From: Reclinomonas americana ATCC 50394 | Taxonomy: Eukaryota | Reading direction: 5' to 3' | DNA: 64,000 nucleotides | Assembly (NCBI GenBank): GCA_048213135.1 | Contig: PS015010.1 | Coordinates: forward strand, 1,488,001-1,552,000 | In this document: positions 10,661 to 17,463 of the stretch, one piece after another | Layout of the letters: the number at the start of each line of letters is the position of its first letter | Position numbering within the stretch: the stretch's first letter is position 1 | Program-made: the position numbers and the translations under genes | The notes under the pieces: generated by a model | Told to the model about the DNA's origin: nothing | What the model saw: the letters and a program-made list of their open reading frames with translations, nothing else | Database searches by the model: none

Positions 10661-10779
10661 ATCATATGACAGTAACCGGCCATTGGTACAAATGCTGCAA
10701 GTAATAGGGGAAAAATCCCCTTGTCTTACAGGATTATTCCCCCCGCTCTATTTAGTAGTTTTATCCAATATTCCTTTTC

Positions 10780-11370
10780 ATGAGTAACATAAAAATATTC
10801 ATCGCTTCTTCAGCAGAATTGGAGGAAGACCGTAAGGCAAGTGCTTTGCTGATCGATGAGTTAAACAAAACCTATCCCCTATTAAATCTCGAACATGTAA
10901 CATACGAGTTAGATACGCCCTCAGGAAATGCCCCAGCGCATAAAGATTTACAGGATGCCATTAATACTAAACTATACGAATCGGAGGTAGTAATATTCCT
11001 ATTCTATACAAAACTTGGAAAATATACACTACAGGAACTGGACGTAGCATTGGACCGGAAGAAAAAAGTTTTTGTCTACTTCAAAAATGGGTTTACACCC
11101 AGGAACAATGAAGAAGAAGAAAAATATAATGACCTGATAGCCCTTAGAAAGAGATTCAATGAGGAGGGTAAGATAAGATGCCAGGATTATAATGACACAA
11201 AGGAGTACTATGGCAAACTCCTTATGGACCTGCATAAATATATATCTGGAACACATAAAGCCGCGCTGGATATACCCGGAATGAAAATGGCAGTAAAAAA
11301 CGGAGGCGATGGGAATATCACTCTTATCGAGTCCAAAGTCGAAAATATAAATTCACAAATAAGAAAATAA
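10780..11370 (+). CDS. DUF4062 / TIR-like (nucleoside deoxyribosyltransferase-fold) domain protein
   Basis: IKIFIASSAELEEDR ... QDAIN..LYESEVVIFLFYTKLGKYTLQELDVA ... VFVYFK pattern; low-complexity N/G/I C-tail. Confidence 0.7.
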   Translation: MSNIKIFIASSAELEEDRKASALLIDELNKTYPLLNLEHVTYELDTPSGNAPAHKDLQDAINTKLYESEVVIFLFYTKLGKYTLQELDVALDRKKKVFVYFKNGFTPRNNEEEEKYNDLIALRKRFNEEGKIRCQDYNDTKEYYGKLLMDLHKYISGTHKAALDIPGMKMAVKNGGDGNITLIESKVENINSQIRK

Positions 11371-11380
11371 GCCAGGTAAA

Positions 11381-12362
11381 ATGCCGGAGTTAAATTCAAA
11401 TAGCATTGAAGAAAATTATAACCCCGACTTATCGGAGGAAGGTATTCCTGAAAGCAAATCTTCAGAAAAGAATGACGCTCTGGGTGATGACAAAGACGAG
11501 TTGGATAGTGAGGAAATTGAAAATTCTTCCAATGTCCAAAATTACGGAGACGGAAATATTACCGCAATCAAGTCCGAAATTGGCGGGATAATTAATAATC
11601 ATATTACAATAGGACTTGATGAAATTCTACTTAATAGCTTAAGAGCCAGGCCTGGTGACTATCCTAATGTGGATGCGGACTTCAATAGAGAATATAAAAA
11701 TACACTGGCACATATAAAGAATAAGCTGAGGGATAAAGACTTTGATAAAGCGTATGAATATTGCCAAAAGGCTGAAGATCTGGCTCCGGCGGAATCCGCT
11801 ACCTGGGAATATTTTGCCCTGACTGAATTTCTGCGTGAAATCAATAAAAAAGAAAAAAGAAAAAGAAAACCGGTACGGGAGATTGTAAGGGCTGTAAAAA
11901 AATCATCTCGAAAAAGGAAAAGACCACGGTTTAAGTGGAATAAAGTATGAAGAAATAACCAATGATATAGCAAACCAGTTGTTTAAACTTCAAAGAGCAA
12001 GGATTAACTCTATCGGTCCTTCTTCAAGAGATTCTAACGGAATTGAAATATGGGGAGGTGCTGAACTTCGGGCCTGTTTGTTTTTTTTGACTTCCTATGA
12101 ACAATGTTTCATTTTAAACCCGGAAGTAAAATTTCTTGAGGAATATGTTGCTGAACTAAGTAAGCCATATAAATGGATTGTGAGGAATTCGCAGGGAAAT
12201 TTATTAAGCAGACCAGTATTTGGTAATTTTTCCGCAGTTGAAAAAAGGGATAACCTGTTGACAAAACTGAGGTCTTTAAATTCCACTTTTCAGCCAGTTG
12301 AAATTAAAGAAGAGCGAATTACTATTCTACCAGATCTCATAAGGGTAATTTCAATCGAATAA
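11381..12362 (+). pseudogene. helical (TPR-like) protein split by a +1 frameshift in an A7 run (ORFs 11381-11950 and 11979-12362)
   Basis: Removing one A from 11896-11902 gives ...RAVKNHLEKGKDHGLSG...IANQLFKLQR, in frame with the second ORF. One TPR-like unit DFDKAYEYCQKAEDLAPAESATWEYFA. Confidence 0.7.
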
Positions 12363-12380
12363 CAATCTTAATACGACAAA

Positions 12381-13493
12381 ATGAAAGAATTACAGTTTAA
12401 ACTTCCTGGTGGCAAAACCCTGAGGGTTGAGTTAGAAGAAACGGTCTTGGTAAATGCTTTCCTCCTGAAACTGAAAGAGGATCAAATACTTGATTCAACT
12501 AAGCCATTCATACTAAGCTCGTTATCAGGCAGCATTATTTCAGAAAGCACCCCGTTTAGATTCCTGCAGGATGAAATGTACTTAATCACTGAACAAAGCC
12601 CGGATGCGATTATCGTCCAGGAAGAAGAGAGCAAGTTAAAACAACAGTTTAAAAATAAATCACCAATGGATTCAGAAATATCACCTAAATATCCCGGGAA
12701 CGTAATACAAAACACAGAGCCCAGAACCGGAGATAAAATCATAATCCCTCCTGGTAAATTAGCTGCAAAATGTGAAGATCATAATTTTGAGAAAAGACGA
12801 AATGTGGCTTTGGACAATAGTAGTGTTATGAATACCTGGATAAAGATTCCCCGCTGCAAATTTATGTCTGACGATCCTTTAGCGAAAAGAGCAAAGGAAA
12901 TAAAAAAGAAAATACAGGAAGGGAATAGCATTTCAATCAGTAAAACCGGGGAAGTGAATCCCACTCTGACTGACACCAGTAAAACCGGGAAAAATATCCA
13001 GATCCCCCCGGGAAAATTGGCCAATTTTTATTGGTATCAGCGGGATCGTGAGCTTTATGAAGCGGAAATAGAAGCAATGAATCTTTCTTTTCCTGCGTTC
13101 AAACTAAAAAAGCTTGATGATGGAAGATTGTATTGGGAAGGTGATATACAACCAAAAGTATGGGGCAATACAAGTTATCGCTTATTGATTGTATACGATA
13201 ACAATCATCCCAGTACAAGTACTTATGGTGGTTCTGTAAAATGTTACTTAGTTGACCCTTCCATCGAGGAACTGGAAGCCAAACACGGCAGAGTTCTTCC
13301 TCATATTATGAAAGACACTGCGAATAACAGGTATTTATGTACTAATTCCACTGAGATTTTTAAAGATTCTGCAACACATAGTACCTCAGCATCTACATGC
13401 CTGAGATGGGCCGTCAAGTGGCTTCTCGTTTATGAATTGTTCGATGCAAAAGAAATCTCATACACCGAATTTTCTAGTCACGATAAGTTTTAA
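12381..13493 (+). CDS. ubiquitin-like N-domain + repeated IPPGKLA linker + E2 (UBC-like) C-domain
   Basis: N-terminal ~70 aa has a beta-grasp-like pattern (LQFKLPGGKTLRVEL...). C-domain has E2 hallmarks: ELYEAEIEAM..FP, LYWEGDI, IVYDNNHP, PH-x10-LC (Cys320). Confidence 0.7.
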   Translation: MKELQFKLPGGKTLRVELEETVLVNAFLLKLKEDQILDSTKPFILSSLSGSIISESTPFRFLQDEMYLITEQSPDAIIVQEEESKLKQQFKNKSPMDSEISPKYPGNVIQNTEPRTGDKIIIPPGKLAAKCEDHNFEKRRNVALDNSSVMNTWIKIPRCKFMSDDPLAKRAKEIKKKIQEGNSISISKTGEVNPTLTDTSKTGKNIQIPPGKLANFYWYQRDRELYEAEIEAMNLSFPAFKLKKLDDGRLYWEGDIQPKVWGNTSYRLLIVYDNNHPSTSTYGGSVKCYLVDPSIEELEAKHGRVLPHIMKDTANNRYLCTNSTEIFKDSATHSTSASTCLRWAVKWLLVYELFDAKEISYTEFSSHDKF

Positions 13494-13498
13494 TCCAT

Positions 13499-14461
13499 AT
13501 GCATGAAAGCAATAAAATAGTTTTTTCTAACAGAGCCTTTAACTCAATTGTATGTGAGACTTACGATAGAATCGCTACAGAAACAGGCGGAATATTGCTG
13601 GGAAGCACTATTGACGGCATTTGGTACGTAGTGGAAGTAATAGATCCCGGCCCTGGCTCGATCTTCACGATTTCTTATTTTGAATACGATACGGCTTATG
13701 TTAATCATCTTGCAAAAGTAATTTCGAAACAATACGAGATTGAACTCGCAGTTTTAGGTTTATGGCACAGGCATCCAGGATGCATGGATACTTTTTCCCT
13801 GACTGATAATATTACAAATACCGAATTTTCAAAACTGCTCCCAAAAGGGGCATTGTCAGGATTGGTAAATATTGATCCTCTACTACGCCTGACTATGTAC
13901 CATGTTTCTTTTCCGTTAAAATATACAAAACTACCTTTTGAAATTGGAGACCACCTGTTTCCTTCCGGCTTATTGAAATACACTCATTCATTTTCGCAAA
14001 AGAGCAGTTATAGCGGGATGCCCCAACCGGCCTATGAAGCAACATTAATTATTGAGAAACCAAACCCGGTGAGATCCATATTTAATAAATTCGTCTACCC
14101 CATTTTTAGAAAATTCAAAACTACTGGTGTCCGTGACAGCTATTCTCCAAACATTAGCAATGCTCCTGGAATGAAAGAGAAGGACGAAGATCATTTGATT
14201 GACTTATATGCGTATGAAGAATTGCAATTGGAAAGCAACTTTAAAGCAAAGTATGAAAGCGAGGTAAAAGACAATAAGATTATTTATAAGATAAATGAGT
14301 TGGGTGATGGCCTGAACCCTGAATTACCCATTTTCTTCACTGTCAACTTAGACCCTGCTAATCCAATTTTTCAATGTACAGATATAGACTATAAGTTCAG
14401 CCCAGGAATATTTACAAGGTATGTTGACAGTAAAATAGAAAATAAACAATTCAAAGGTTAA
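13499..14461 (+). CDS. prokaryotic JAB/MPN+ metallo-isopeptidase with C-terminal extension
   Basis: ETGGILLG, VIDPGP, GLWHRHP-x5-S-x2-D complete JAMM motif. Confidence 0.9.
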   Translation: MHESNKIVFSNRAFNSIVCETYDRIATETGGILLGSTIDGIWYVVEVIDPGPGSIFTISYFEYDTAYVNHLAKVISKQYEIELAVLGLWHRHPGCMDTFSLTDNITNTEFSKLLPKGALSGLVNIDPLLRLTMYHVSFPLKYTKLPFEIGDHLFPSGLLKYTHSFSQKSSYSGMPQPAYEATLIIEKPNPVRSIFNKFVYPIFRKFKTTGVRDSYSPNISNAPGMKEKDEDHLIDLYAYEELQLESNFKAKYESEVKDNKIIYKINELGDGLNPELPIFFTVNLDPANPIFQCTDIDYKFSPGIFTRYVDSKIENKQFKG

Positions 14462-14471
14462 TTCTGCAAAG

Positions 14472-15707
14472 ATGAATCCACTAAAGCCAGTTAACGAACA
14501 TGCACCCCGCGTTTTTTTTCCGGAATTCCTTTTGGAAAGTGACTACTGTGGTAGCATCTTGGGATACTATCATGCAAACACATCCGTATTTAATATTATT
14601 TGCACAGACGAAGTAATAAATACAGCGCTCGCAGGCGCCAATGCGATAGGGCAAATAATAAACATTGACGAAAATGGAGTTTTTTTTAAACCCACTCGAA
14701 ATATTGAGTATGCCGGCCAAGAGAAAGAAGTAGTGCACTTTGTTGAAAAACCAAGTCTGGGTCAAACGCAAATTCTCGGGATCAGAAAAGGAAAAAATAT
14801 AGACTTTTTCACAAGTAAAGGCGTTAAATGCGAATCTGAACCTTATTCGTTGATTAACGACGTGTTTTCCAGGAATACTAATATACTGGAGACGAGTTTA
14901 ATGTTAGAGAAAACGGTTATCATTTCAGGTTGTGGCTCTGTTGGAAGTTTGGTTGCTTTGGAACTTGCAAGAGCGGGTGTTGGAAAATTCTTGTTAGTAG
15001 ACTATGACCTAGTATCCTATCACAATATTTGTCGTCATCAATGCAGTATTACTGATGTTGGCAAATATAAAATTGATGCGATTGAAGAAAGAATATTACA
15101 AATTAATCCAACTGCGCAAATTGGAAAGTCATACAGCATCATTGAAGAAGTTCCTGAAAAAACATTTCTGGAGTTCTGCAGCAAAAATTCCATTATTATT
15201 GGATGTGCTGACAACAGAGAAGGAGATCTGTATGCGAATTTCATTTCTAAGCTTTACAAGATTCCTTTCTTATCGATCGGTTTTTGGGAAAGGGCGTTTG
15301 CTGGCGAAATATTTTACACGCTTCCAAATGGCATGCCATGCTACAAATGCTTTTATGAAGAAATTGGTGTAGTTATAGAAAGGCCTGCCAATAGGAAATA
15401 CTATACTAATGAAAAACATTTAGAAAAACTGAATTTTGAACCTGGGATTTCGGTTGATATAAATTTTGTAACAACGATTGCTATCAAGCTCGCAATAGAT
15501 ATCCTCAATATTGGCAATGAAAGTTATATTCCAAAAGTGATCGACCACCTTGATCAGTTTACCCTGGTATGCAATACCATTGATGAAAGAATTGGAGGAG
15601 AACAATCTGAATACTTTTCATACCCGCTACAGGTAAGAAAAGGGATTGACATAATCTATTGCTCAAAATGTTTAGAAAAAGAATTTTGCGTTCTGGTAAC
15701 CGAATAA
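14472..15707 (+). CDS. ThiF/E1-family adenylyltransferase
   Basis: GCGSVGS, LARAGVG, VDYDLVSYHNICRH, GKYK, GCADN, zinc pairs CYKC and CSKC. Confidence 0.92.
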   Translation: MNPLKPVNEHAPRVFFPEFLLESDYCGSILGYYHANTSVFNIICTDEVINTALAGANAIGQIINIDENGVFFKPTRNIEYAGQEKEVVHFVEKPSLGQTQILGIRKGKNIDFFTSKGVKCESEPYSLINDVFSRNTNILETSLMLEKTVIISGCGSVGSLVALELARAGVGKFLLVDYDLVSYHNICRHQCSITDVGKYKIDAIEERILQINPTAQIGKSYSIIEEVPEKTFLEFCSKNSIIIGCADNREGDLYANFISKLYKIPFLSIGFWERAFAGEIFYTLPNGMPCYKCFYEEIGVVIERPANRKYYTNEKHLEKLNFEPGISVDINFVTTIAIKLAIDILNIGNESYIPKVIDHLDQFTLVCNTIDERIGGEQSEYFSYPLQVRKGIDIIYCSKCLEKEFCVLVTE

Positions 15708-15718
15708 CTTTTCTAGAA

Positions 15719-17170
15719 ATGTCATTCCGCATAGATATAAATGGTGAAATAATCAGGGATAATCAAAATCAAGCTACTGCCCCTAACCCCGGTCCCGAGG
15801 AACGACATTTCAACTTTTTGTGGATAGCGCTGGTATTAATTGTCGTTTTTATTGGATACAAGGTAATATCAAATTTAATTGGAAAGAATGACTATCGCAA
15901 TTCCCGGCAAACTACTTCAACCCAAAGCCCTGGTAATTCTCCATACTTGCAACCATCAACAAGCAATTCCACTTTTTCATCCTCTGCCGAAAATCAAAAT
16001 GGAGTTGAGGATCATAAAGTAATAATTTTAAATGGCAAATGGGTCCAGATTGAGGAAGCAAACCATGGCACCCGTAACATTGGTTTAGCCATTTTATTCC
16101 AGGAAAATATTGGAACAGTTATTTATGTCCCCAATTCCTCATCCCCTTACCATGCAGGCCAGGTAATATGGAAAGATTTTGACCCTGAAAGGCAGTGGAT
16201 CAAGCAATACATTACCACTTCTGACAATTACCTGAACATTGAAATCAAGTTCAAAGATTCTAACACTATCGATTTATATGGGAATATCTTTCGAAGACAG
16301 CCTTCTCCCGAAAGCGAAACTACGCAAGCTGTTACCCCTTACCCGGATAAGGAAAAAATTGAGGCCGATCTGTTAGGAAAAAAAATGACAAACTGGAATT
16401 TTGACTACCTCCAAGAATTCCAGGACTTTAATATTCTGCACGAAGAAATAAGCGATGGTTACCTGTACCAGACGATAGAACTTAAGTTGGTAGATTTAAA
16501 TACCAGTAACAATTATAATTCTGAAATCGTAGTAACATACTTAAACGCGAATAATGGGTGGGAATTTGTTAGTGTTAAGCAAAATTCATATTCCCAAATT
16601 CCAGCATCAACTCCTCCGGTAGAAAATGGTACAAATCAGGATAATGCCCCTGTTTCGGTAACTCCCTCCGCGCCCGAAAGAAGTAGTTCAAACAAGGATA
16701 AGAGTTCTGTTCCGTCAACTTCTAATAATTTCTCGGGTCACTATTCAGGAATAATATTTAATAAAGGCTATACGAATATTGGCGACTATATTTATTACAG
16801 AACAAATAATTGTAGCGTGGATGACGTGTTTTTTATGGACAGGAATGACAATAAAGTTTCCGGCAATATTGTAAATGAGGGGCAGCCCATATATTTATCA
16901 ATGACCCTGGGTAAATTTACAAAAAGAAGCGAAAAATTCCGTTATTCCATATCCAGCTATATGGAAGATGAGGAGGGTACCGTTTATGCCAAATCAGAAA
17001 ACGTAGTTTCTGAATCTTCTACACCTTATTTGGGTATCGCAATTGGAGGAGGCTTACGCAGGCTACCTGTAAACACAAGAAGTTTGAATATATATATAAG
17101 TTTTAGAATCGATGATAAATTCTCTGATGCTAAATTAGAAGGTTTTTATAAAATAGTTGTGGTGCGTTAA
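15719..17170 (+). CDS. single-pass membrane protein with several extracytoplasmic domains
   Basis: ATG 11 nt after the E1 stop; TM FLWIALVLIVVFIGYKVI; Ser/Thr/Pro linkers separating three beta-rich segments. Confidence 0.75.
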   Translation: MSFRIDINGEIIRDNQNQATAPNPGPEERHFNFLWIALVLIVVFIGYKVISNLIGKNDYRNSRQTTSTQSPGNSPYLQPSTSNSTFSSSAENQNGVEDHKVIILNGKWVQIEEANHGTRNIGLAILFQENIGTVIYVPNSSSPYHAGQVIWKDFDPERQWIKQYITTSDNYLNIEIKFKDSNTIDLYGNIFRRQPSPESETTQAVTPYPDKEKIEADLLGKKMTNWNFDYLQEFQDFNILHEEISDGYLYQTIELKLVDLNTSNNYNSEIVVTYLNANNGWEFVSVKQNSYSQIPASTPPVENGTNQDNAPVSVTPSAPERSSSNKDKSSVPSTSNNFSGHYSGIIFNKGYTNIGDYIYYRTNNCSVDDVFFMDRNDNKVSGNIVNEGQPIYLSMTLGKFTKRSEKFRYSISSYMEDEEGTVYAKSENVVSESSTPYLGIAIGGGLRRLPVNTRSLNIYISFRIDDKFSDAKLEGFYKIVVVR

Positions 17171-17189
17171 AAACGCCCTCTACATTAAC

Positions 17190-17349
17190 ACCATAATCTT
17201 CCTTATATTTTAAAACCCGGGAAGTATCGGCAGAAGTAAATTTGGAATGACCAATATTATGCTCATACAAACGCCGGTCAAGACCAGTACAGGCACCAAC
17301 AATAGTATTTCCCGAGCTTTTCTGAATAAATAATGTAAACAAAGGGCAT
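17190..17349 (-). pseudogene. GIY-YIG nuclease pseudogene
   Basis: MPFVYIIYSEKLGKYY [extra T] VGACTGLDRRLYEHNIGHSKFT...VLKYKEDY; frameshifted and lacking the C-terminal E...K helix. Confidence 0.8.
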
Positions 17350-17390
17350 GAAAATGAAAAACGCCTCTGGAATATTCAGAGGCGTTTTCG

Positions 17391-17463
17391 TGATCCCGCT
17401 GGGACTCGAACCCAGGGCCCATACATTAAAAGTGTATTGCTCTACCAACTGAGCTACGGAATC
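17391..17463 (-). tRNA. tRNA-Lys(TTT)
   Basis: Cloverleaf gattccg/cgggatc, D arm gctc..gagc, anticodon arm ataca-cttttaa-tgtat, T loop ttcgagt. Confidence 0.97.

Follow-up and report, generated by a model that had tools for sequence, protein, structure and literature searches.

In a 64,000-nucleotide stretch of DNA from Reclinomonas americana ATCC 50394 (the window; assembly GCA_048213135.1, contig PS015010.1, positions 1,488,001 to 1,552,000), one 370-residue open reading frame (ORF) joins an N-terminal domain, two copies of a small repeated unit and an E2 domain in a single polypeptide, and is followed by genes for a JAB/JAMM peptidase and an E1 adenylating enzyme (Table 1). Judged from the sequences, this gene probably encodes small modifiers fused head-to-tail ahead of their own E2, which would be released by the JAB and conjugated by the E1 and the E2. 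The proposal draws on features that were observed directly: a repeated tail motif, its family-wide conservation, a variable number of copies, free forms that end at the final Ala of the motif, and the constant company of JAB and E1.

A repeated tail motif ahead of the E2 domain

The first copy of the motif, TGDKIIIPPGKLA, occupies residues 116–128 (nucleotides 12726–12764), and the second, TGKNIQIPPGKLA, occupies residues 202–214 (nucleotides 12984–13022) and directly abuts the E2 domain. The initial annotation had placed two GKLA motifs at exactly these coordinates, the second immediately before the E2, and the translation agrees. It had also noted that the PPGKLA codons differ at five of six positions, as they do (CCT CCT GGT AAA TTA GCT versus CCC CCG GGA AAA TTG GCC). 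Because of these codon differences, and because no DNA repeat spans both motifs, a DNA-level repeat was ruled out; the only DNA repeat near the motifs is a 16-nucleotide pair within unit 2. IPPGKLA is the longest exactly repeated peptide in the protein, a 7-mer. That length was reached in none of 2000 shuffles of the protein, in which the maximum was a six-residue repeat, seen in five. The shuffles and the family-wide conservation together rule out chance repetition, the conservation placing the motif far above chance.

The motif forms the end of a unit of ~45–65 residues, which opens with its N-terminal motif, (I/V)-P-x-G-x-(F/L)-x, and continues through a basic helix, (D/E)DxxAKKRxELxxxL in type, a small hairpin, V-x-V-x-x-x-G-x-V, and about ten variable residues to the C-terminal tail, (I/V)-P-x-G-K-L-A. 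Between the two tails of the window protein lies WIKIPRCKFM (residues 153–162). The location and degeneracy assigned to this peptide by the initial annotation hold, but not its status as a decayed tail: by alignment, it is the N-terminal motif, degenerate yet conserved, with which every first unit of the family begins. In the unit alignment (A2), Leu-Ala is invariant in 22 of 22 sequences. Residues 72–135 of the window protein align to the units of the family member P0035 (39% over 66 residues, E = 9e-5), which indicates that the first tail is part of another, degenerate unit.

Taken as a whole, the family is not rare: searching 1.84 billion representatives with a profile returned 573 clusters at 50% identity with E ≤ 1e-3 (the best 150 of the 573 listed), 347 with E ≤ 1e-10 and 125 with E ≤ 1e-30. 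Motif conservation and copy number in homologues, which the initial annotation had named as a check, came out in its favour: one or more units precede the E2 in all 25 of the first homologues, and an iterated hidden Markov model (HMM) of the unit, applied to 175 family proteins, detected 172 units in 110 of them (64 with one unit, 34 with two, eight with three and four with four), spaced mostly 44–56 residues apart. The remaining 65 proteins include 33 with fewer than 20 residues before the E2 and eight N-terminally truncated fragments; the rest carry either divergent repeats with tails such as VVSA, FAA and FAG or other domains. The arrays at two loci, L002 and L020, are recent exact duplications of the unit. 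A precomputed Pfam label, PF26395, is attached to 24 of the 25 homologues; a Pfam scan of the window protein gave no match, and the scanned set may lack that model.

Conservation of the tail was counted position by position in the 130 units matched right through to the C terminus. Ala comes last in 121 of them (Gly in four, Ser in three), preceded by Leu in 122 and Phe in eight at position −1, Lys in 96 at −2, Gly in 118 at −3 and Pro in 103 at −5. In 75 of 82 proteins, the last unit stops −2 to +3 residues from where the E2 model begins. Internal tails are conserved as well as terminal ones, with Leu-Ala kept in 45 of 50 internal tails versus 69 of 80 last tails.

Two further observations concern what units are joined to. 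Elsewhere in the E2 family (P0078, P0173, P0119, P0144, P0170 and P0020/P0021), the N-terminal fusion partner is a TIR, Ser/Thr kinase or DnaJ domain, or else a membrane protein with units after it, and the same set includes a C-terminal JAB fusion. At one locus, two genes upstream of the E2 (L003:4099-4797 and L003:3519-4001) open with a unit, or with the motif and helix from the start of one, before running into helical regions unrelated to it, so tail-bearing units also sit at the N terminus of other proteins.

Free-standing units and their partner enzymes

The family was followed in 23 genomic loci (numbered with the prefix L) from metagenome-assembled genomes (MAGs) of Bacteroidota, Firmicutes, Actinobacteria and Acidobacteriota. 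Seventeen of these have the units fused to the E2. Five others (L006, L007, L008, L013 and L014) encode the unit as an ORF of its own, 63–77 residues long, whose stop codon falls directly after ...APEGKLA. There, a 154-residue E2 begins at M/V-x-G-F-Y-W-Y, one to three residues ahead of (F)YWY, in the same frame a few codons on in three of the five and in another frame in two. At L018, the separate unit ORF (L018:1847-2260) runs past KLA into a 52-residue Cys-rich extension. Free-standing tags with a Cys-rich (CxxC-type) extension of ~35–50 residues after GKLA were seen in P0223, P0228 and L018; such an extension would need to be removed to expose the Ala.

A search with the 65-residue L007 protein retrieved 119 free-standing relatives (clusters at 90% identity). 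The C terminus is exactly GKLA in 94 of them and GKLA plus 1–37 non-conserved residues in 18, and the other seven look frameshifted or truncated. One free-standing tag cluster occurs on 573 contigs, much of it from gut bacteria. At the level of sequence, mature ends, short variable extensions and fusion precursors make up the pattern known for ubiquitin-like modifiers. In the split and free forms, the C terminus of the modifier and the N terminus of the E2 thus fall at the proposed bond.

By profile comparison, the E2 and E1 belong to the Cap2/Cap3 lineage, and the JAB probably does too; their predicted catalytic residues are intact. PADLOC E2 models match residues 227–357 of the window protein (best 9.4e-16), and the E2 Cys320 is invariant in 26 of 26 sequences. 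Among NCBIfam models, the JAB matches the 6A-MBL cap2_3 model (9e-13) and Cap3 (2.5e-3; 18.1 bits versus a 200-bit cut-off), both below cut-off. The nearest solved relatives of the E1 by profile are UBA5 (4.9e-17), MccB (4.5e-16), Cap2 (8.6e-12) and PaaA (1.2e-10), with MoeB and ThiF also among them, and its Gly-rich loop and Arg/Asp columns are invariant in the alignment. E2, JAB and E1 occur together in 21 of the 23 loci, and in 20 they stand in the order E2-JAB-E1; the gene order differs in L022, the contig end truncates L021, and L015, whose sequence includes Ns, yielded only the JAB and a portion of the E2.

Additional E2-like sequences lie beside the tagged E2 at three loci. In two of them (L020:7980-8423 and L015:3513-3893), a second E2-like gene just upstream has YLELLF in place of YLCT and may be an inactive paralogue resembling ubiquitin E2 variants. 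In the third (L001:3984-4271, equivalent to G001:C162:6034-6333), a partial second E2 directly follows the tagged E2, matches query residues 200–300 and contains one in-frame TAG; it is probably a decayed duplicate.

Structure predictions were examined for the full-length protein, its N-terminal domain and the unit. The full-length AlphaFold2 model contains helices at residues 76–90 and 166–180, with a predicted local distance difference test (pLDDT) score below 50 over residues 92–162 and above 90 over most of the E2. A Foldseek search with this model against PDB gave no match at E ≤ 0.001. The weak top matches were all E2s, led by 8yjy_B (E = 5.5e-3), the E2 of a CdnG–E2 complex from a system of antiphage signalling through cyclic oligonucleotides (CBASS), and then UFC1; they informed nothing on the N-terminal domain. 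The E2 profile found no match among PDB sequences, and the ESM Atlas gave no usable match for the free-standing tag P0178.

The initial annotation had described residues 1–128 as a piece containing a ubiquitin-like (Ubl) domain. The tail of a degenerate unit does end at residue 128; the Ubl label is plausible but weak, since relatives of residues 1–70 were not found and the Atlas leads are weak. The low-confidence AlphaFold2 model (pLDDT 38–72 across residues 1–80) predicts strands at residues 2–7 and 13–18, a helix at 23–33 and strands at 43–46, 57–62 and 65–68, a beta-beta-alpha-beta-beta-beta order typical of beta-grasp domains. The Atlas leads for residues 1–115 point to ubiquitin families (scores 0.87–0.90). 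None of the 175 family proteins has a relative of residues 1–70, and residues 1–115 had no match in 401 genomes from the family of G001, the genome that holds L001.

Proposed pathway and alternative readings

Within the proposed pathway, the JAB would cut after the tail Ala, certainly at A214 and probably at A128. Cuts at both sites would yield residues 1–128, residues 129–214 (86 residues) and the E2; the E2 would thus be freed with its native N terminus, along with a tagged piece or two with Leu-Ala at the C terminus. The E1 would adenylate the Ala carboxylate, and the modifier piece would pass to Cys320 of the E2, possibly by way of an E1 thioester, before being joined to an amine on a target. 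The JAB could also reverse the conjugation. A dedicated mini-modifier would then stand where the CD-NTase (a nucleotidyltransferase like cGAS and DncV) stands in type II CBASS. Cleavage, adenylation and transfer through a thioester are inferred, as are the target and the role in biology.

Each of these proposed steps has a parallel among published accounts of other systems. The JAB domain of BubCD is reported to cut the BubAB Ubl–E2 fusion after Gly229 (PMC11601596), and BilC is reported to trim BilA, exposing its reactive end (bioRxiv 10.1101/2023.09.26.559546). Cap2 is described as adenylating the CD-NTase at its disordered C-terminal tail, and a target in E. cloacae carried a Phe-Ala remnant (bioRxiv 10.1101/2022.03.31.486616). 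JAB-mediated release of a Ubl from a Ubl–E2 polypeptide was predicted by Kaur et al. 2020 (PMC7159879). As these accounts describe them, a modifier–E2 pre-protein opened by a JAB is already published for Bub, and recognition by the tail only for CBASS. The suggestion in the initial annotation that GKLA ends a released piece, so that one gene would encode both substrate and enzyme, gains support from the split loci (5 of 23), the GKLA ends of free-standing forms (94 of 119), the conserved internal tails, the presence of JAB and E1 in 21 of 23 loci and the BubAB precedent (PMC11601596).

Several results weigh against this pathway. No catalytic cysteine was identified in the E1. The unit modelled alone with AlphaFold2 is helix only, with a mean pLDDT of 57.8 and a predicted template modelling score of 0.23, and the unit profile found nothing significant in Pfam or among PDB sequences. 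Consequently, the description 'ubiquitin-like' rests on context, not on fold; the unit may fold only on binding, or the alignment may be too shallow. No modifier is seen in the 33 of 175 proteins with so few residues ahead of the E2, distant members have the tails VVSA or FAA instead of KLA, and the kinase (P0173) and DnaJ (P0119) fusions show no evident tail where the two parts meet. The 119 free-standing forms all belong to a single clade (55–98% identical to the query), so the splits may reflect few evolutionary events. Finally, the proposed pathway leaves unexplained the degenerate motif copy at the N terminus of every first unit. Judging by its sequence, this copy has diverged too far at its final two positions to serve as another site of cleavage or activation; it may form a strand that pairs with the tail.

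That N-terminal copy, which cannot be a C terminus, would be more at home in a permanent N-terminal arm of the E2, with a docking or autoinhibitory role, whose tails would fill the E1 or JAB pocket or bind targets without ever being released, the actual substrate being a different protein. The largely disordered prediction for the region, with one helix per unit, would also suit such an arm, as would the unrelated TIR, kinase and DnaJ domains at the N termini of other E2-family members. However, 6 of the 23 loci encode the unit as a product of its own, which ends at KLA in five of them, and the great majority of free-standing homologues (94 of 119) end at GKLA. Moreover, copy number varies from one to at least five, with recent identical duplications (L002 and L020), which suits a stoichiometric product better than an arm. 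We therefore consider a permanent arm unlikely.

The resemblance of the E1 to MccB (4.5e-16) and PaaA (1.2e-10) raises another explanation, in which the unit is a ribosomal peptide precursor whose C terminus is activated by the E1-like enzyme in the style of MccB and microcin C7, followed by export, mostly by a module of FtsK/SpoIIIE ATPase and WXG100 proteins. Multi-copy precursors and the frequency of the ATPase (18 of 23 loci) and of WXG100 proteins (16 of 23) would fit. However, the constant partners of the unit are a JAB and an E2 with an invariant Cys, which have no role in MccB-type chemistry. The C-terminal residue of the MccB substrate is Asn, and that of the unit is Ala. In addition, neither FtsK nor WXG100 genes lie near the operon in the window or in L001, and most of the FtsK-type proteins checked lack a transmembrane (TM) segment. 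A peptide precursor is, in our view, very unlikely.

Least likely of the three is that modifiers are released and conjugated as proposed and the reactive end is the conserved Gly, the JAB trimming Lys-Leu-Ala from PPG-KLA: Gly does occupy −3 in 118 of 130 units, and Bil modifiers are described as having a conserved Gly followed by up to nine residues, BilC trimming the residue after Gly97 of BilA (bioRxiv 10.1101/2023.09.26.559546), but the post-Gly residues are not conserved in Bil according to that account, whereas here Lys (96), Leu (122) and Ala (121 of 130) are conserved at least as well as the Gly, natural stops and variable extensions start after the Ala, not the Gly, and −3 is Asp or Ala in some members.

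Genomic setting and relation to known systems

Table 1. Positions of the features described, numbered from the first nucleotide of the window
Feature	Position	Strand	Evidence
Pre-protein gene, 370 residues: N-terminal domain, degenerate unit 1, spacer, unit 2, E2	12381–13493	+	ORF, translation, homologues
N-terminal domain, residues 1–70	12381–12590	+	AlphaFold2 model; beta-grasp-like element order
Degenerate unit 1, residues ~72–128: helix at residues 76–90, tail TGDKIIIPPGKLA; proposed scissile bond A128–A129	12594–12764	+	Alignment to P0035 units, AlphaFold2 helix
Spacer, residues 129–152, predicted disordered	12765–12836	+	pLDDT <50 over residues 92–162
Complete unit 2, residues 153–214: WIKIPRCKFM, helix at residues 166–180, short hairpin, tail TGKNIQIPPGKLA; proposed scissile bond A214–N215	12837–13022	+	Unit alignment, unit HMM, AlphaFold2 helix
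E2 (UBC-fold) domain, residues 215–370; Cys320 at nucleotides 13338–13340; NHP motif at residues 275–277	13023–13490	+	PADLOC E2, invariant columns, AlphaFold2
JAB/JAMM peptidase, 320 residues; Glu28; H-x-H-x7-S-x2-D at residues 90–103 (nucleotides 13766–13807); no family assigned to the C-terminal ~190 residues	13499–14461	+	Pfam Prok-JAB 9e-6; PADLOC JAB 2.9e-9
E1 adenylating enzyme, 411 residues: N-terminal ~130-residue domain and ThiF-type domain with GCGSVGS	14472–15707	+	ThiF 7.1e-28; PADLOC Cap2-type E1-E2 9.3e-26
Membrane-anchored protein, 503 residues, one TM segment near residue 50	15719–17170	+	Cluster c17, TM scan
Three upstream island genes: TIR-like protein (196 residues) and two proteins (189 and 127 residues)	10780–12362	+	TIR_2 E 0.02; PADLOC PDC-S60 3.7e-11
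Low-GC island (0.37 versus ~0.49 in the flanks), holds the operon	10700–17300		GC content
tRNA-Lys at the island end	17390–17463	−	

The operon lies in a low-GC island whose seven genes span positions 10780 to 17170 and whose appearance suggests horizontal acquisition. Around the island, direct repeats amount to short, chance-level pairs, with no attachment-site repeat among them. The three genes upstream of the tagged E2 are conserved by BLAST in none of the 23 loci, and their membership of the system is uncertain. Downstream of the E1, the single-pass membrane protein of cluster c17 is shared by the window and its closest relative, L001, and is the only such accessory gene that the two have in common; it has no Pfam, PADLOC or NCBIfam match.

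Most relatives have a different neighbourhood. A protein of ~1100 residues that combines a GYF_2 domain at its N terminus with an ATPase domain of the FtsK/SpoIIIE type (Pfam 3.4e-24) is encoded in 18 of the 23 loci, and 16 carry one to four WXG100 proteins, of which 21 of 27 members match PF06013; the WXG100 profile matches EsxA and EsxB structures at ~1e-7 to 1e-5. Several small membrane proteins accompany these genes. Loci of this type are L004, L006–L014 and L016–L023 (for example, L020:1654-5475), Bacteroidales MAGs included. FtsK and WXG100 genes are absent near the operon in the window and in L001, and tblastn of the FtsK, WXG100 and accessory proteins of the relatives against the whole window gave no match. 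A TM scan of four FtsK-type proteins found three without a TM segment and one (L004) with one; because these proteins mostly lack TM segments, the module is described as type-VII-like and not as a demonstrated secretion system.

The E2 family occurs in 2 of the 401 genomes from the family of G001, and only two viral contigs carry it. Such sporadic spread, and a low-GC island with a tRNA gene at its flank, are consistent with a mobile system for conflict or defence, which is probably the biological role of the operon.

Two short sequence features of the neighbouring proteins were also seen. The C terminus of the TIR-like protein (GGDGNITLIESK, positions 11290–11367) and the middle of the next protein (YGDGNITAIKSE, positions 11534–11617) share GDGNIT-x-I, which may be a pairing element between neighbouring proteins. 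The accessory membrane proteins beside the operon all begin with a short hairpin-like motif, h-x-h-x-x-(D/N)-G-x-h (FRIDINGEII, VEIDSVGGI, FTVNDDGSVT and YIINPDGSI; sites at 15719–15760 in the window, at L001:6763-, L020:7340- and L015:3118-, and at the P0020 N terminus). This motif resembles the central hairpin of the unit; its information content is low, and the likeness may be coincidence.

Among known systems, type II CBASS shares with the operon an E2 and E1 of the Cap2 lineage, a CBASS E2 (8yjy_B) being the nearest structure, probably a JAB of the Cap3 lineage and, in the pathway proposed here, the recognition of the substrate through a short, non-beta-grasp C-terminal tail that ends in a small residue. 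By contrast, there is no CD-NTase here (no match to Pfam, PADLOC or NCBIfam models among the seven island proteins) and no cyclic-nucleotide effector. Cap2 is an E2–E1 fusion in type II CBASS, whereas here each of the two has its own ORF, on either side of the JAB gene, and the operon has a dedicated 45–65-residue unit, often in tandem and fused to the E2.

Bub type I resembles the operon in that a modifier pre-protein is fused to the N terminus of the E2, with the JAB cut right after the last modifier residue shown for Bub (PMC11601596). Bub modifiers, as described, consist of between one and three domains with a beta-grasp fold and end in Gly, and the Bub E1 and E2 are described as forming Tyr and Ser oxyesters with no catalytic Cys, whereas here the E2 Cys is invariant. 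The JAB is fused to the E1 in Bub and is a separate ORF here, and DUF6527, the family of the Bub protease BubE, had no Pfam match among the island proteins. BilABCD, according to the published description, is alike in its gene order modifier-E2-JAB-E1, in pre-processing of the modifier by the JAB in Bil and in having no E3. Its modifiers are described as beta-grasp proteins ending in Gly, whereas the units here end in Leu-Ala and, in a low-confidence model, are not predicted to be beta-grasp. Its E1 is described as multidomain (IAD-AAD-CYS), whereas the 411-residue E1 here has a single ThiF match and no PF14459 match. Bil-type Pfam families found no match among the seven island proteins.

The JAB (9e-13) and the E1 (3.9e-17) also partially match NCBIfam Cap2_3, the E2-E1-JAB triple fusion of 6A-MBL systems. 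However, these matches score 47.6 and 62 bits versus a 320-bit cut-off, the three enzymes are separate genes here, and Pfam and NCBIfam found no match in the island to the MBL gene that partners 6A-MBL. More distant likenesses are to the polyubiquitin and ubiquitin-fusion precursors of eukaryotes, polyubiquitin being a head-to-tail modifier array of rapidly changing copy number that is processed at each unit C terminus, and to actinobacterial Pup, a small, largely disordered, helix-forming modifier that uses PafA and Dop. The likeness lies in the array design of the former and the small disordered helical tag of the latter; there is no sequence or demonstrated fold relationship to either, and the Pup pathway has no E1, E2 or JAB.

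To our knowledge, bacterial conjugation attaches a beta-grasp Ubl (Bil and Bub), the enzyme's own tail (the CBASS CD-NTase) or Pup. A literature search found no account of the unit, of a tandem or free tag with a Cap2-type E2, or of a link between E1/E2/JAB and WXG100/FtsK; operons of this kind may be listed in the supplementary tables to the papers on Bil, Bub and CBASS, which lay outside the search. There is a real chance that the modifier forms a new class. A fuller definition, as a new prokaryotic class in which a non-beta-grasp, 45–65-residue Leu-Ala tag, free or in a poly-tag–E2 fusion opened by a JAB, is served by a Cap2-lineage E1 and E2, is mostly wired to FtsK/WXG100 and carries a portable tail handle, is possible but falls short of probable.

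If this is true, the family would represent a fourth solution, namely a dedicated mini-tag recognised only through a short tail and made, in the manner of polyubiquitin, as arrays that are joined to the E2. Its tail would serve as a portable handle for other N-terminal cargo, a beta-grasp-like domain here and a membrane protein or TIR domain elsewhere. Trypsin would leave a Leu-Ala remnant on modified lysines, which would provide a clean experimental handle. The link to FtsK/WXG100 would tie covalent tagging to a type-VII-like export or conflict apparatus, and it raises the question of whether type-VII-like export, or else a response against phage, is under the control of covalent tagging.

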